A stretch of 64,000 nucleotides of DNA from a bacterium. Lineage in GTDB: Bacteria > Patescibacteriota > Minisyncoccia > Phycocordibacterales > UBA2100. The position numbers and the translations under genes were made by a program. The DNA lies in the NCBI GenBank assembly GCA_030647655.1, contig JAUSJH010000009.1:82196-146195 (forward strand), in the 5' to 3' direction. Below are positions 19,370-62,209 of this stretch, one piece after another. How positions within the stretch are numbered: the stretch's first letter is position 1; each line of letters begins with the position of its first letter. The notes below the pieces were generated by a model. That model did not search any database and was not told the DNA's origin. It was given only the letters and a program-made list of their open reading frames with translations.

Positions 19370-19405
19370 CTCGTTCGTAACTTTACACGAATCTTTCCAC
19401 AACAC

Positions 19406-19430
19406 AAAAACCCGCCATAGGCGGGTTTTT
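19406..19430. terminator. bidirectional rho-independent terminator AAAAACCCGCC-atag-GGCGGGTTTTT
   Basis: Perfect 7-bp GC stem flanked by an A-run and a T-run, between tRNA-Gly and the hup stop. Confidence 0.7.
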
Positions 19431-19452
19431 GTGTTTGCAGCGCTGCAAATAA

Positions 19453-32733: not shown

Positions 32734-32879
32734 ATACAGACTGAGAGACCTGGATTAGAACTCGGCAATAGTACACCCCCGAAAGGGGATTTCCACTTCA
32801 TTAAAATCATTCGCGCTTCGCTTGTTGCTGTACAGGCAAACGGCTCATATACCGGTATATGAGCCGTTTGAGTTTGCAG

Positions 32880-55337: not shown

Positions 55338-55754
55338 ATGTCTACGATAAATCAACTTACGCGTAAGGGGCGCACGCAAAAGACGTGGCGCACGAAAACC
55401 ATCGCGCTTTCGCGCGGCTTCAACACGCTTAAGAACCGTCCATCTTTTTATCCCGCACCCTTCAAGCGCGGTGTTTGCACCCGTGTAACGACGAAAACCC
55501 CGCGCAAACCGAACTCCGCTATCCGCAAAATCGCCCGCGTGCGCCTCACCAACGGCATGGAAGTTACCGCCTACATTCCCGGCGAAGGACACACTCTGCA
55601 AGAGCACTCGGTAGTACTTTTGCGCGGCGGCCGCGTAAAAGACATCGGCGTGCGCTATACCATCGTTCGTGGCAAATTGGATGCGACGGGTGTTGAGAAG
55701 CGCCGCCGTGGCCGCTCGCTCTACGGCGCGAAGAAGCCGAAAGCCGCCAAGTAA
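55338..55754 (+). CDS. rpsL: 30S ribosomal protein S12
   Basis: PTINQL-like start ...[60 protein letters not shown]. Confidence 0.95.
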
Positions 55755-55759
55755 TTTTT

Positions 55760-56221
55760 ATGCGACGCCCCACAAAAAATAGAAAACAGCCCCAGCCGGA
55801 CGAAGTGTACGGCTCGTTCAAAGTCGCAAAGCTCATCAATTATGTGATGGAACGCGGAAAGAAGGACACAGCGCGCAAAATCGTCTACAAAGTGATGGAC
55901 GAATTGAAGAAAGAAGGGGACCCACTCGTAATTCTTGAAGAAGCGCTCGAGAAGGCATCTCCATCGGTGGAGGTGCGCTCGCGTCGCGTTGGTGGTGCCA
56001 ACTATCAGGTGCCGCGCGAAGTGAATCCCGCTCGCAAAATGTCTCTAGGCATGCGTTGGATTGTGGAAGCGGCCGAAGGCACCAAGGGCAAGCCGATGCA
56101 TGAATCGCTCCTCGCCGAAATCAAAGCCGCGCACAAAGGCGAAGGCGCCGCGGTGACCAAAAAAGAAACGACGCATCGCATGGCCGAGGCCAACAAAGCT
56201 TTTGCCCACTTCGCGTGGTAG
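55760..56221 (+). CDS. rpsG: 30S ribosomal protein S7
   Basis: KFVNYVMERGKK...ARKIVY...VEVRSRRVGGANYQVP. Confidence 0.95.
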   Translation: MRRPTKNRKQPQPDEVYGSFKVAKLINYVMERGKKDTARKIVYKVMDELKKEGDPLVILEEALEKASPSVEVRSRRVGGANYQVPREVNPARKMSLGMRWIVEAAEGTKGKPMHESLLAEIKAAHKGEGAAVTKKETTHRMAEANKAFAHFAW

Positions 56222-56230
56222 AATGAACGT

Positions 56231-56644
56231 ATGAGATTCGCACTGGCAGTGCTCTTGCTAACCATCGCATCTTCTTTATTTTCGTGGGTATTTGGATTCG
56301 GCGGTTCAGCGATTATAATGTTCTTACTCCCAACATTCGCGCCCACGACAAGCGCGTACCTTGCCGGCGTGCTCCTTATAGATATAGCGAGTACGGTACT
56401 TAGCTGTTGGCTTGCCGTTTTTTCGGTAACAAAAATGGGGCAACTAAAGTCTATCGATTATCCCAAAAGACTTGCCGGCGCTGTGACCTTGGTGTTTGTC
56501 GCGGTTGATTTCCTCTTTATTCTCCCGGTGGTCATAGCTGGTGGAAAGCCGTCGACGTTTACCCTCGCTTCGGTCGGGTTGTCGCTCGTTGTCACGTATT
56601 TCACCCTTCGTTTCTTTCTTGTCCGTCTCAAATCCCAAGGTTAA
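56231..56644 (+). CDS. hypothetical membrane protein (4 TM)
   Basis: Hydrophobic helices. The stop codon lies within a palindrome at the IS boundary. Confidence 0.45.
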   Translation: MRFALAVLLLTIASSLFSWVFGFGGSAIIMFLLPTFAPTTSAYLAGVLLIDIASTVLSCWLAVFSVTKMGQLKSIDYPKRLAGAVTLVFVAVDFLFILPVVIAGGKPSTFTLASVGLSLVVTYFTLRFFLVRLKSQG

Positions 56645-57400
56645 ACCTTCGCCCACTTTAAACCCCTGAGGTTAAACCTCGGGAGGTAGGTCTGCGTAGT
56701 ATGCTCGGGCATCTCGCAGCATTGCGCCGAAACTTGGCAGCGCATCGTAGTATTCCTTGATTGAAGCAGTTGTGATACGGCCTAGCCCTGTCTTGTTGGC
56801 ATGGAAGAATTCATCCACGCTCGCATACGGATAGGCGAGGATTTCCCGGCGGAGCATGCGGATGTCGCATTTCCCACGTTTCCATTCCGGCGCAAAAAGC
56901 TCTGCCGGATTCAGGAGAATATATGGCACGACCTGCTTTAAGTACCGGTCGTCGCGAATATGCTTTGCCTTGTATGTTCCGCTAAATAAGGAACCGGTCC
57001 GGTCGTTTCTGCTGTTGAAATACATCGTGTAACCAGTGAACACTTTTTGCATGAATCGCGCAATGCCATTGTCTTGCAACTGCCGGAGCAACAGGTGAAC
57101 GTGCGTCGGCATGAGAGCAAACGCGCCAATATCAACAAGTTGCTCCCCGCGGTCGACATGTTTGTCGGCGAGTATGGACTGCAAATCGACCTTGAATCTT
57201 TCCGAGACCGTCTCCGCCTTCGTCCCATTGCTTAGATACAACAAACTCATGAACCGTTCATAATCGCGACGGTGGCCAAACACCCTCCGCTTATCGACAC
57301 CTCTGTTGTAGCAGTGGTACCACTCATCGGTGACGCACGGTTCTCGTGTTGCCATGCTCTCCAGTATACCACCATCTCCCGAGGTTAAACCTCGGGAGAT
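56633..57400 (-). mobile_element. IS200-like / RAYT-type element: single Y1 HuH transposase gene bounded by palindromic hairpins
   Basis: Left palindromes AAGGTTAAACCTT (56637-56649) and CCTGAGGTTAAACCTCGGG (56665-56683). Right perfect 25-nt palindrome TCTCCCGAGGTTAAACCTCGGGAGA (57375-57399). Confidence 0.7.
56672..57355 (-). CDS. IS200/RAYT-family Y1 (HuH) transposase
   Basis: HuH motif PTHVHLLL; catalytic Tyr context GSLFSGTYKAKH; N-terminus WYHCYNRGVDKRRVF. Confidence 0.8.
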   Translation of the reverse strand: MATREPCVTDEWYHCYNRGVDKRRVFGHRRDYERFMSLLYLSNGTKAETVSERFKVDLQSILADKHVDRGEQLVDIGAFALMPTHVHLLLRQLQDNGIARFMQKVFTGYTMYFNSRNDRTGSLFSGTYKAKHIRDDRYLKQVVPYILLNPAELFAPEWKRGKCDIRMLRREILAYPYASVDEFFHANKTGLGRITTASIKEYYDALPSFGAMLRDARAYYADLPPEV

Positions 57401-58019: not shown

Positions 58020-58052
58020 GTAACGTCCGAAGGTGAAACCTTCGGACGTTAC
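58020..58052. repeat. perfect 15-bp-stem palindrome GTAACGTCCGAAGGT-gaa-ACCTTCGGACGTTAC (REP-like, shares GGTGAAACC core with IS-end palindromes)
   Basis: Seen directly, about 100 nt upstream of fusA. Confidence 0.6.
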
Positions 58053-58104
58053 CACTTCGCGTGGCAAGTTTGCATTTCCGCGGATTTCCGCTACATTACT
58101 GGGA

Positions 58105-58154: not shown

Positions 58155-60296
58155 ATGGCACGAGATTATCCTCTAGAGAAAGTGAGAAATTTTGGCATAA
58201 TCGCGCACATCGATGCGGGTAAAACGACCACGTCGGAGCGCATCCTCTACTACACCGGTGAGAGTCACAAAATAGGCGAGGTACACGAGGGTGACACGGT
58301 GACCGACTGGATGGAGCAGGAGCGCGAGCGCGGCATCACCATCACCGCCGCCGCCATCACGTGTTTCTGGAATCCCAGCTACATGGGCGCGGACCTTTCA
58401 CAGAAAGTCCGCTTCAACATTATTGATACCCCCGGACACATCGACTTCACGTCCGAGGTGAAGCGAAGCATGCGCGTACTCGACGGCGCGGTCGTTGTCT
58501 TCGATGGTGTCGCGGGCGTGGAGCCGCAGAGCGAGACCAACTGGCGCTACGCGGAGGAAGCCAACGTGCCACGCGTCTGCTACATCAACAAGCTCGATCG
58601 TACCGGCGCATCATTTGAAAAATCATTTGCGAGTATTTTGGATAGGCTCTCCACAAAAGCGGTGCGCGTGCAAATCCCGATCGGTCTTGAAGATAAATTT
58701 GAAGGTGTCGTCGATCTTCTCACGATGAAGGCCTATCACTTCGAGGGGGAGAAAGGTGAAAAAGTGGTCGCGGGCGAGATCCCCGAAAATGTGAAAGCGG
58801 AAGCGGAAAAATACCGCAAAGAACTCATCGAGAAAATCGTCGAACATGACGATGCTCTAATGCATGAGTATCTTGAAGGAAGAGAGATACCGGTCGAGAT
58901 GTTGAAAAAGACGCTACGCAAAGCGGTGATTGCAAACGGTATTTTCCCCGTCCTAACAGGTTCGTCGCTCAAGAACAAGGGCGTACAGCTTGTACTCGAC
59001 GCGGTCGTCGATTACCTCCCATCGCCACTGGATATGCCTCCGGCAAAAGGCACGAACACTGACACGGGTGCCGAGGAGACCAGGCCCGCGAGCGACGAGG
59101 CGCCGTTCGCCGCTCTCATTTTTAAACTGCAGGTAGACCCGTTCGTCGGCGCTCTCTCGTTCTTCCGCGTCTATTCCGGTTCGATTGCCGCGGGCGATGA
59201 CATTTACGATTCCGCGAACAACAAAAAAGAGCGGCTCGGACGCATCGTGCGCTTGCAAGCTGACAAGCGCGAGGACGTGAAGATAGTCTACGCGGGCGAG
59301 ATTGCCGCCGCTGTCGGCTTGAAAGAAGTGAAGATTGGGCATACGCTCTGTGACCCCGCGCACCCAATCGCGCTAGAGTCCATTGTCTTCCCAGAGCCGG
59401 TGGTTTCGATGCGCATCGAGCCCAACACCAAAGCCGACCAGGAAAGAATGGGCATCGCGCTCTCGCGCCTTTCGGATGAGGACCCAACATTTCGTATCAA
59501 ATCAGATCCGGAAACGATGGAAACCATCGTTTCCGGCATGGGTGAGCTTCACCTCGAGATCATCGTCGAGCGCATGAAGCGCGAATTTGGCGTGCAAGCT
59601 TCGACGGGGAAGCCGCAGGTCGCCTATCGCGAGACCATTCAAGGCACGTCGGACGTGGAGTACAAACACATCAAGCAGACGGGCGGCCGCGGCCAGTATG
59701 GGCACGTGAAAATCCGCATCAAACCGCTCGAGCCATTGATTGAAGGAAAGAAAATCAAGAACAACGTCGAGCGCGAGGACCACTTTGAATTCATCAACAG
59801 CGTCAGGGGAGGCGTCATTCCACAGGAGTTCATCCAGCCGGTCAAAAAGGGCATCAAGGAGGCGATGGATCGCGGAGTACTCGCAGGATTTCCCGTGGTG
59901 GATATTTCCGTCGAGCTCTACGACGGCTCGGCCCACGATGTGGACTCATCCGAAATCGCCTTCAAGCTCGCGGCTATCAATGCAATGCAGGAAGCGATGC
60001 AAAAAGCGAAACCGGTACTGCTCGAACCTATTATGAAATTGGAGGTCGTGACGCCCGAGAAATTCATGGGCGATGTCACCGGCTCCATCAACTCAAAACG
60101 CGGAGCAATAGAGGCGATGGGCGAGCGTGGACAAGCACGCGTCATAACCGCCAAAGTCCCGCTCTCCGAGCTTTTCGGATTCACGACGCAATTGCGCTCT
60201 CTCACCGAAGGCCGAGCCGTGCCCAACCTCGAATTCAGCCACTACGCCATCGTCCCGAAATCTGCCGCCGACCTCGTCATTGCTGCGAGGAAGTAG
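58155..60296 (+). CDS. fusA: translation elongation factor G
   Basis: 713 aa: MARDYPLEKVRNFGIIAHIDAGKTTTSERILYYTG... through ...AIVPKSAADLVIAARK. Confidence 0.97.
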   Translation: MARDYPLEKVRNFGIIAHIDAGKTTTSERILYYTGESHKIGEVHEGDTVTDWMEQERERGITITAAAITCFWNPSYMGADLSQKVRFNIIDTPGHIDFTSEVKRSMRVLDGAVVVFDGVAGVEPQSETNWRYAEEANVPRVCYINKLDRTGASFEKSFASILDRLSTKAVRVQIPIGLEDKFEGVVDLLTMKAYHFEGEKGEKVVAGEIPENVKAEAEKYRKELIEKIVEHDDALMHEYLEGREIPVEMLKKTLRKAVIANGIFPVLTGSSLKNKGVQLVLDAVVDYLPSPLDMPPAKGTNTDTGAEETRPASDEAPFAALIFKLQVDPFVGALSFFRVYSGSIAAGDDIYDSANNKKERLGRIVRLQADKREDVKIVYAGEIAAAVGLKEVKIGHTLCDPAHPIALESIVFPEPVVSMRIEPNTKADQERMGIALSRLSDEDPTFRIKSDPETMETIVSGMGELHLEIIVERMKREFGVQASTGKPQVAYRETIQGTSDVEYKHIKQTGGRGQYGHVKIRIKPLEPLIEGKKIKNNVEREDHFEFINSVRGGVIPQEFIQPVKKGIKEAMDRGVLAGFPVVDISVELYDGSAHDVDSSEIAFKLAAINAMQEAMQKAKPVLLEPIMKLEVVTPEKFMGDVTGSINSKRGAIEAMGERGQARVITAKVPLSELFGFTTQLRSLTEGRAVPNLEFSHYAIVPKSAADLVIAARK

Positions 60297-61340: not shown

Positions 61341-61430
61341 GACGGCCGCGCCGTGCCCAACCTCGAATTTTCCCACTACGCAATTGTTCCGAAATCTTCT
61401 GCCGACCTTGTCATCGCGGCGAGGAAGTAG
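61341..61430 (+). repeat. degenerate copy of fusA 3' end (copy 2)
   Basis: Aligns to 60208-60296 with roughly 85% identity. In frame it re-encodes DGRAVPNLEFSHYAIVPKSSADLVIAARK plus a stop. Confidence 0.8.
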
Positions 61431-61466: not shown

Positions 61467-61733
61467 ATGACCACGCAAGTTGTATTCAATATAGATCCGA
61501 AGATAAAAGCGCGCGCGATGAAGCGTGCCAAGAGCGAGGGTATACCGTTTGCATCCGTTCTTAAATTCGCTACGAAGGCTTTCGCCGACGGCGCACTTTC
61601 ACTTGAGATGGTTGAAGAGATCAGACCCGAAAAATTGCAACTGATGGAGCGGGCGTCACGAGCCCTCGATCAGGGTAAGGGAAAGAGGTTTAATTCGGTG
61701 GCGGAACTTCGTAAACATATACGGAGCCTGTAA
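61467..61733 (+). CDS. type II antitoxin (RelB/DinJ- or RHH-like)
   Basis: MTTQVVFNIDPKIKARAMKRAKSEGIPFASVLKFATKAFADG, with TTGACA-type promoter upstream (61432-61437) and the toxin gene 2 nt downstream. Confidence 0.6.
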   Translation: MTTQVVFNIDPKIKARAMKRAKSEGIPFASVLKFATKAFADGALSLEMVEEIRPEKLQLMERASRALDQGKGKRFNSVAELRKHIRSL

Positions 61734-61735
61734 CT

Positions 61736-62017
61736 ATGACGGATTGTCCGCGCTATACCATCGCGTATGATTCCGCATTTGATCGCATTCTCAAAAAACT
61801 GAAGCGCCGCGACCCGGCGCTTCTCACGGCACTTGATCTCGGGATTGAGAAAATATTGAAAGAGCCGATGCTTGGGAAACCGTTGAAAAATGTGTTGCGG
61901 AATTCTCGGAGACTCCATATCGAAGGGTCGTTTGTCCTTCTCTATGAAATATACGAATGCCAAGTTCGTTTGCTCGATTTTGACCATCACGACCGGATAT
62001 ACAGGAAATACTCTTAA
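61736..62017 (+). CDS. type II toxin, RelE/ParE family
   Basis: LGKPLKNVLRNSRRLHIEGSFVLLYEIYECQVRLLDFDHHDRIYRK. Confidence 0.7.
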   Translation: MTDCPRYTIAYDSAFDRILKKLKRRDPALLTALDLGIEKILKEPMLGKPLKNVLRNSRRLHIEGSFVLLYEIYECQVRLLDFDHHDRIYRKYS

Positions 62018-62031
62018 CATCTTCGAACCCT

Positions 62032-62209
62032 TCGGCTTCACCACACAGCTCCGCTCTCTCACCGAAGGCTCCCGATTTTCATATCGTTACTGCGATATAG
62101 AAAAGCGCAGTCCCCTTTGGGGGCCGCGCGGTACCCAATCTCGAGTTCTCTCACTACGCAATTGTTCCGAAATCTGCCGCCGACCTCGTCATCGCGGCGA
62201 GGAAGTAAA
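62032..62209 (+). repeat. composite degenerate copy of fusA 3' end (copy 3) interrupted by a 52-nt insert (62071-62122)
   Basis: 62032-62070 matches fusA 60174-60212 (FGFTTQLRSLTEG). 62123-62209 matches fusA 60211-60296 (VPNLEFSHYAIVPKSAADLVIAARK plus a stop). The insert carries two small hairpins. Confidence 0.8.

Follow-up and report, generated by a model that had tools for sequence, protein, structure and literature searches.

Insertion sequences of the IS200/IS605 family end in imperfect subterminal hairpins that share one orientation, with guide and cleavage tetranucleotides outside them. Their transposases, TnpA of Y1 subclass 1.1, are core-only proteins of ~150 aa with a Y-x3-Q motif, the mark of true IS200 transposases, whereas Y-x3-NP defines class 2, the RAYT-like Y1 enzymes (Quentin et al., PMC6006769, Table 1). 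Within class 2, the proteins of subclass 2.1, or TIRYT (Bertels group 1), are ~238 aa long with a DnaA_C/helix-turn-helix (HTH)-like C-terminal domain; the subclass was reported to lack REP-like hairpins, and some of its members have terminal inverted repeats on their flanks (Quentin et al. 2018, PMC6006769). RAYTs are commonly regarded as domesticated genes with an indirect link to mobility. Here we describe a 64-kb stretch of a Patescibacteria contig (JAUSJH010000009.1), hereafter the window, in which 736 bp between rpsG and fusA (56665-57400) consist of a palindrome, a promoter, a Y1 HuH nuclease gene and a second palindrome. We put at about 60% the probability that these 736 bp are an intact compact mobile unit in which a RAYT-class Y1 enzyme lies between its cognate palindromes, so that the gene and its two palindromes would themselves be what moves.

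Like IS200, IS608 and ISDra2, the unit is ~0.7 kb long and has one Y1 HuH gene flanked on both sides by ends that can form hairpins, and its product matches Y1_Tnp and has the same fold. It also occurs as a discrete unit at different sites with empty sites in relatives, as insertion sequences in general do. A previous reading of the window from sequence only had called this the canonical IS200/IS605-RAYT architecture, which does not describe it well. Unlike that family, the window protein has 227 aa with a C-terminal extension and carries Y-x3-NP, and the palindromes are perfect and symmetric, sit at the very edge of the unit and have a mixed loop orientation. Homology between copies stops where the palindromes end, which leaves nothing outside them to correspond to the sequence beyond the subterminal hairpins of IS200/IS605. 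A tnpB gene is likewise missing, and multiple near-identical copies were not seen (a single copy in 64 kb; diverged paralogues). Since it has no Y-x3-Q, no asymmetric subterminal hairpins and no cleavage motifs, the element is not a canonical member of IS200/IS605.

The second comparison is with the REPtrons (RAYT/TnpAREP, E. coli YafM, 4er8; subclasses 2.2, 2.4 and 2.5), with which the element shares the class-2 motifs and its best structural match. As in REPtrons, cognate palindromes bracket the gene, extra copies lie beside it, each paralogue has its own palindrome type, copy number is low, the gene is under purifying selection, and solo palindromes occur in related genomes. Unlike REPtrons, neither palindrome has a 5' GT[AG]G at its foot, the stems are perfect rather than bulged, no copies are dispersed over the 64 kb, and it is the gene together with its palindromes that behaves as a mobile element. 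The missing GT[AG]G foot, the lack of dispersed REPs here and a score far under the cutoff of the RAYT equivalog (NCBIfam NF047646 REP_Tyr_transpos, 34.9 bits against 80) mean that it is not a canonical REPtron either. The element thus has an IS200-like size and layout combined with a RAYT-type enzyme and RAYT-like behavior, and is canonical for neither family.

The Y1 enzyme and its palindromes

The open reading frame (ORF) of 227 aa and the three palindromes quoted in the sequence-only reading lie where it had put them (Table 1). Its HuH motif, HVHLL, is present at residues 85-89, and the two histidines, H85 and H87, are invariant in the family. The profile that it had named as a check, Pfam Y1_Tnp (PF01797), matches residues 73-146 barely over threshold (26 bits against a cutoff of 23, E 1.1e-5). 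An AlphaFold model made from 32 homologues (pLDDT 87) has as its best match in the PDB 4er8, the REP-associated transposase of E. coli in complex with a REP hairpin (TM 0.70 on target), followed by the IS608, ISDra2 and IS200 transposases. At the sequence level the match to solved structures is weak, with ISDra2 reaching E 0.037 when a profile was used, and single-sequence comparison of the protein with solved structures gave no match.

The catalytic tyrosine had been placed in GSLFSGTYKAKH. This motif is present, but its tyrosine, Y128 (in GTYKAKH), is a Phe in many homologues, and the segment is the counterpart of the 'W/F' motif in Y1 enzymes. Across 32 aligned sequences, H85, H87, Y145 and N149 are invariant. 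Y145 sits at the end of the Pfam match in Y-[IV]-L-L-N-P (here YILLNP, Y145-x3-N149-P150), which fits the Y-x3-NP of class 2, and is our candidate for the catalytic tyrosine. Judged by its motifs, HuH and Y-x3-NP both being present, the protein is a member of the RAYT-like class 2 of Y1 enzymes. Of the earlier label, an IS200/RAYT-type transposase, the Y1 HuH protein and the RAYT-type motif therefore stand, while the IS200-type tyrosine motif, Y-x3-Q, does not.

Within class 2, the form of the HuH motif, the length and the LF-x-G-x-[YF]-K segment resemble subclass 2.1 most, a likeness judged by the published motifs in Table 1 of PMC6006769 and not by a profile. Shared with subclass 2.1/TIRYT are a length of ~230 aa, an NHVH-type HuH (here [NT]HVH), LF-x-G-x-[YF]-K, Y[IV]-x-LNP and a C-terminal extension, in this case helical and ~80 aa long (residues 150-227). 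The differences are the perfect flanking palindromes and a C-terminal part without any Pfam match, HTH families included. The subclass that the protein resembles most closely has been reported as hairpin-free. The hosts of the family described here are Patescibacteria with small, supposedly transposon-poor genomes. A PADLOC search gave no match to a defense system. The Y1 gene is under purifying selection, with a nonsynonymous to synonymous ratio (dN/dS) of 0.09-0.10 against its relatives.

A first protein search returned 688 homologues, nearly all of ~225 aa, and those that are named come from Kaiserbacteria, Paceibacterota and other Patescibacteria. Relatives were found in >581 places in a scan of one genome per species, often several in one genome, and a profile search of 1.8 billion representatives gave 729 clusters (50% identity) at E<=1e-30. 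Database labels on the members are generic ('transposase' or 'RayT'), and literature searches gave no description of the Y1 family or its palindromes in Patescibacteria. The family is large and apparently undescribed.

Four palindromes of the form GGT(T/G)AAACC, P1 to P4, lie within 1.4 kb of the window. Allowing at most one mismatch, the core AGGTTAAACCT has seven strand-matches in the 64 kb, all of them at P1-P4, compared to 0.5 expected from shuffles, none of which (0/100) reached seven. No further family member came to light when every perfect palindrome of the window was examined. The perfect 25-mer quoted earlier is real and extends to the 27 nt of P3, and P4 is an addition to those listed then. 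When folded as single-stranded DNA (ssDNA), P4 reaches -17.5 kcal/mol (z -7.1 against shuffles) and P3 -13.9 kcal/mol (z -6.0); P2 is weaker and moderate at -7.7, and P1 is marginal at -2.3.

The stop codon of the Y1 gene (56672-56674) is at the center of P2, in agreement with the claim that it lies inside a hairpin, and that of the membrane-protein ORF (56642-56644) is at the center of P1. P1 is 13 nt from P2, and L091 has a second palindrome at the equivalent position. P1 has no counterpart in the L215 unit (88% identity) and so falls outside the conserved unit. P4 begins 50 nt past the secreted-protein ORF; palindromes like it, with GAAGGTGTCACCTTC, flank other family members and adjoin solo copies in metagenomes. 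At the other end of the gene, the start region reads ...GGGAGAT-GGTGG-TATACT-GGAGAGC-ATG, and the TATACT box is separated from P3 by 5 nt and from the ATG by 7 nt. Such a short distance to the ATG means that the Y1 mRNA leader would be very short or absent, and the placement of this -10-like box means that P3 would cover the -35/spacer part of the promoter.

This layout is conserved in the family. A matching palindrome pair brackets the gene in ~70 of the 80 homologous loci fetched, which bears out the claim that the palindromes are the cognate ends of the Y1 gene, and most relatives have two palindrome copies per 12-kb locus. The center of the upstream palindrome lies ~20-60 nt before the ATG (median ~32), and the downstream one overlaps or closely follows the stop codon. 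In 56/68 loci a TAnnnT box lies within ~10 nt past the upstream palindrome, mostly with the start codon 6-7 nt later. Of 127 distinct palindromes, at least 112 have an AGG-N5-CCT core, and positions 8-12 from the center are paired in 60-97% of the palindromes with all four pair types in use. Outer arms agree at 5.3/7 positions within a locus compared to 2.2/7 between loci. This pattern points to a conserved recognition core, with selection, or a generating mechanism, for pairing elsewhere. Direct repeats of half an arm adjoin 14/128 palindromes, compared to 1 in control windows. No conserved nucleotide motif was found beside the palindromes, where no flanking position exceeds 47% conservation.

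We also considered whether the palindromes are ordinary regulatory elements, one acting as an operator on the promoter and the other as a terminator near the stop codon, with the protein a DNA-binding regulator or repair nuclease that has no role in mobility. The fixed distance at which the upstream palindrome overlaps the promoter and the overlap of the downstream one with the stop codon would suit this explanation, as would the resemblance of some exact-match palindromes in metagenomes to intrinsic terminators with A and T runs. We nevertheless regard it as very improbable, since no T-run follows P2, P3 or P4, the two palindromes of a unit share sequence and co-vary, the whole unit is present or absent at different sites, and the catalytic HuH and Tyr residues are invariant.

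In one clade (L007:6700-6760; L041, L059, L061, L062 and L064), a promoter copy, TGGTATAGT, with an ATG follows the downstream palindrome, so that the unit ends in a ~45-nt direct repeat. This terminal copy may drive the next gene.

Unit boundaries and evidence for mobility

Copies with 82-88% nucleotide identity to the unit, metagenomic or genomic, are present in L091, L215, L179 and L182, with flanks unrelated to those in the window. On the P2 side, homology ends at 56665 for L091, L179 and L182 and at 56659 for L215, and on the P3 side it ends at 57396 for all four. The L091 copy lies between the genes of a Pro/Ala-rich secreted protein and a 677-aa protein, and around the L182 copy are genes homologous to those at 0.1-4.5 kb of the window. 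When the window is compared with L182, the proportion of synonymous differences (pS) is 0.51 in the Y1 gene and 0.76-0.79 (saturated) in three flanking genes, so the unit postdates the split between its hosts. In L143, L122 and L205, two palindromes enclose a decayed 3' remnant, which lies at a further site, between homologues of the window at 34.9 and 37.9 kb.

Filled and empty sites were also found. L007 and L011 have units at different nearby sites, and each site is empty in the other genome and carries no palindrome. On this ground we rejected, for comparable sites, insertion into a pre-existing att-like palindrome with target duplication. L116 and L176/L187, which are ~98% identical in their aligned flanks, differ by a palindrome-bearing segment of 167 nt. 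Across metagenomes, the family-specific 25-mer stands in ~25 distinct solo contexts, counting only those with the family-specific CCT...AGG extension. A larger set of >120 exact 19-mer matches in metagenomes was set aside as evidence of dispersal, as many have A-run and T-run flanks and are probably unrelated terminators, and the palindrome has only ~12 free positions, so that chance matches are expected. As to the idea of a REP family mobilized by this RAYT, no dispersed family is seen in the 64-kb window, and solo and MITE-like (miniature inverted-repeat transposable element) copies occur in related metagenomic genomes.

The 167-nt segment (L176:8905-9075 compared to L116:4515-4525) is structured, with the palindrome flanked by CAGGGTTAACCT repeats and a second inverted repeat alongside. 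A motif, GTCTACCTGTGCTGGCAC, recurs next to solo palindromes on L105, L141 and L185. This recurrence suggests a MITE-like derivative.

Several observations weigh against a mobile unit. The 64 kb hold no second copy of the Y1 unit and no other family palindrome, and paralogues within one genome form separate deep branches of the Y1 tree, unlike an actively multiplying insertion sequence. The identical proteins P0052, P0004 and P0019 each occupy one site in 11-23 contigs from many samples. In many lineages the rpsG-fusA spacer contains family palindromes or a Y1 gene from another subclade, which suits long vertical residence and mobility equally. A target-site or cleavage motif next to the palindromes was not identified, and the mixed loop orientation of a unit's two palindromes (24 direct, 29 inverted) is unexpected under the strand-specific IS608 model. 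In IMG/VR, no relative was found on viral contigs, leaving phage carriage unsupported.

One alternative is a domesticated REPtron, that is, an immobile, vertically inherited RAYT-like gene that disperses or maintains short palindromes, with copies at other sites arising by horizontal transfer and recombination. The Y-x3-NP motif and the best fold match, TnpAREP, agree with this, as do the low copy number, the diverged paralogues each with its own palindrome type, the stable location across samples, the occupation of the same str-operon site in distant relatives, the solo palindromes and the polymorphic 167-nt element in related genomes, and the strong purifying selection. On the other hand, homology between differently placed copies stops exactly at the palindromes, which general recombination does not predict, the palindrome is missing from empty orthologous sites, and the unit is younger than the host genes at synonymous sites. 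The absence of the canonical GT[AG]G foot and of dispersed copies in the window, together with the low NCBIfam RAYT score, also speaks against a REPtron, and we hold this explanation to be unlikely.

If 56665-57400 is a mobile unit, as we favor, its mechanism would be analogous to that of the IS608 and ISDra2 TnpA and the E. coli TnpAREP. The Y1 protein would bind the two cognate palindromes folded as ssDNA hairpins, with the AGG/CCT core as the likely recognition determinant and a variable outer stem that needs pairing only. Cutting and rejoining would proceed via a 5'-phosphotyrosine link to Y145, at positions that the same analogy would set, with the metal held by H85 and H87. The whole unit would be moved in this way, and occasionally short palindrome-bearing fragments too. 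Binding at the upstream palindrome, over the -35/spacer, would probably repress transcription and keep activity very low. The window copy would have landed in the rpsG-fusA spacer and has apparently been resident there for long.

A tentative extension, which we offer as a possibility and do not expect to be the case, is that the family is a living intermediate between an IS200-type insertion sequence and a domesticated REPtron, with an autonomous 0.74-kb RAYT-class unit, short palindrome-bearing fragments mobilized in trans and perhaps a preference for a few permissive spacers, rpsG-fusA among them. Perfect palindromes would then be usable on either strand, which would explain the ~50:50 loop orientation, and the hundreds of natural protein-palindrome pairs, in which the AGG/CCT core is fixed and the outer stems are free, would be a readable code of HuH-hairpin specificity. 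The family offers a simple system in which to ask how REP/RAYT systems arose from insertion sequences, and many orthogonal nuclease-hairpin pairs for the study and use of HuH recognition of single-stranded DNA.

The rpsG-fusA spacer and other features of the locus

As the sequence-only reading had noted, the element interrupts rpsG and fusA together with a membrane-protein ORF and a secreted repeat ORF (Table 1). It had proposed a check of related genomes for an uninterrupted rpsG-fusA junction. The copies with 82-88% identity have other genomic surroundings, and the spacer is also occupied in distant relatives.

Table 1. Features of the str-operon region of the window
Feature	Position	Strand	Remarks
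rpsL	55338-55754		str-operon gene order in the window
rpsG	55760-56221		str-operon gene order in the window
Membrane-protein ORF, 137 aa	56231-56644	+	no family match; variable spacer cargo
P1, degenerate extra palindrome	56637-56649 (feature span 56633-56651)	none	AAGGTTAAACCTT
P2, stop-side terminal palindrome	56665-56683		CCTGAGGTTAAACCTCGGG; one T-G mismatch
Y1 HuH nuclease/transposase gene, 227 aa	56672-57355	-	
-10-like box TATACT	57363-57368	-	TGG before it
P3, promoter-side terminal palindrome	57374-57400		ATCTCCCGAGGTTAAACCTCGGGAGAT; 27 nt, perfect 13-bp stem, one central base
Secreted Trp-rich repeat ORF, 154 aa	57506-57970	+	no family match; variable spacer cargo
P4, solo palindrome	58020-58052		GTAACGTCCGAAGGTGAAACCTTCGGACGTTAC; 15-bp stem; CGAAGGTGAAACCTTCG core, GGTGAAACC center; sister subtype
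rpsG 3'-end remnant, 13 nt	58052-58064	+	CCACTTCGCGTGG; abuts P4
fusA	58155-60296		str-operon gene order in the window

The family is concentrated in this spacer and marks a hotspot of variation within a str operon that is conserved otherwise. A complete chromosome of Kaiserbacteria (L015, in CP066682) shares synteny with the window, its RpsL, RpsG and FusA being 84-88% identical as proteins. Between its rpsG and fusA, L015 also has a Y1 unit, which belongs to a different subclade (48% identity), lies on the opposite strand and has different small ORFs beside it. L215 has a full unit, 88% identical, in the same spacer, L012 has the same rpsG-fusA arrangement, in which palindromes separate three unrelated ORFs from one another, and L005 has a unit upstream of rpsL. 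A solo palindrome occupies the spacer in L169, L129, L147, the L127 group and L200; that of L169 retains 8 nt of the 3' end of the Y1 gene, which makes it a deletion remnant. Since the spacer is occupied in distant relatives too, the window copy is probably old and not a recent hop. These data fit either an ancient insertion that decayed repeatedly or a spacer that was targeted again and again. We take the copy to be old but intact, and the evidence stands against recent activity.

A motif near TTTCCGCTACATTACTG (window 58085-58101) precedes fusA and is kept in the spacers of L015, L169, L215, L147 and L127, whatever is inserted upstream. It is likely a fusA-proximal promoter or regulatory site. 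Its retention in all examined spacers suggests that fusA probably has a promoter of its own, which would be why the spacer tolerates insertions.

The cargo ORFs of the spacer vary from genome to genome. The membrane-protein ORF has no homologue in the rpsG-fusA spacers of relatives, and the secreted repeat ORF was found only in an identical Logan contig (L223). The latter ORF, of 154 aa, consists of diverged repeats around a Trp motif (VEWDG, MQWDGWD, AEWNGP, FDWSKK and VEWNGP). We considered the capture of neighboring cassettes by the Y1 enzyme, since small ORFs have palindromes between them in the window, L012 and L005. This was unsupported, as a toxin-antitoxin cassette in the same spacer of L169 has palindrome-free borders and is flanked by a duplicated rpsG tail.

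The 3' end of rpsG is duplicated downstream in L169, L129, L147 and L215, and in L169 a 59-nt copy follows the toxin-antitoxin cassette. These duplicates are longer than the 13-nt remnant of the window and lie at an equivalent place. The duplication has the same signature as one seen at fusA and appears independent of the Y1 palindromes. The window has the fusA 3' end three times. The real one is at 60215-60296, a second of 87 nt (86% identity) is at 61344-61430, and a third, longer one is at ~62020-62207. Between these lie a 333-aa ORF without a family match and an antitoxin-like ORF with a ParE-family toxin (61467-62017). No recombinase is present. From its sequence, the arrangement looks like serial cassette insertion at the fusA 3' end, each cassette bringing its own copy of the gene tail. 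The third copy is split by a 53-nt insertion (62070-62122) with an imperfect inverted repeat (TTTTCATATCG...CGATATAGAAAA).

Other palindromes in the window are distinct from the family. A perfect one of 29 nt with a 13-bp stem (59508-59536) lies inside fusA, where it encodes PETMETIVSG, and probably arose by chance from the codons used for a conserved motif of elongation factor G. Two further long perfect palindromes are unrelated to the Y1 family: the 34-nt CAAACGGCTCATATACCGGTATATGAGCCGTTTG (32837-32870) and a 35-nt hairpin resembling a bidirectional terminator (19401-19435).

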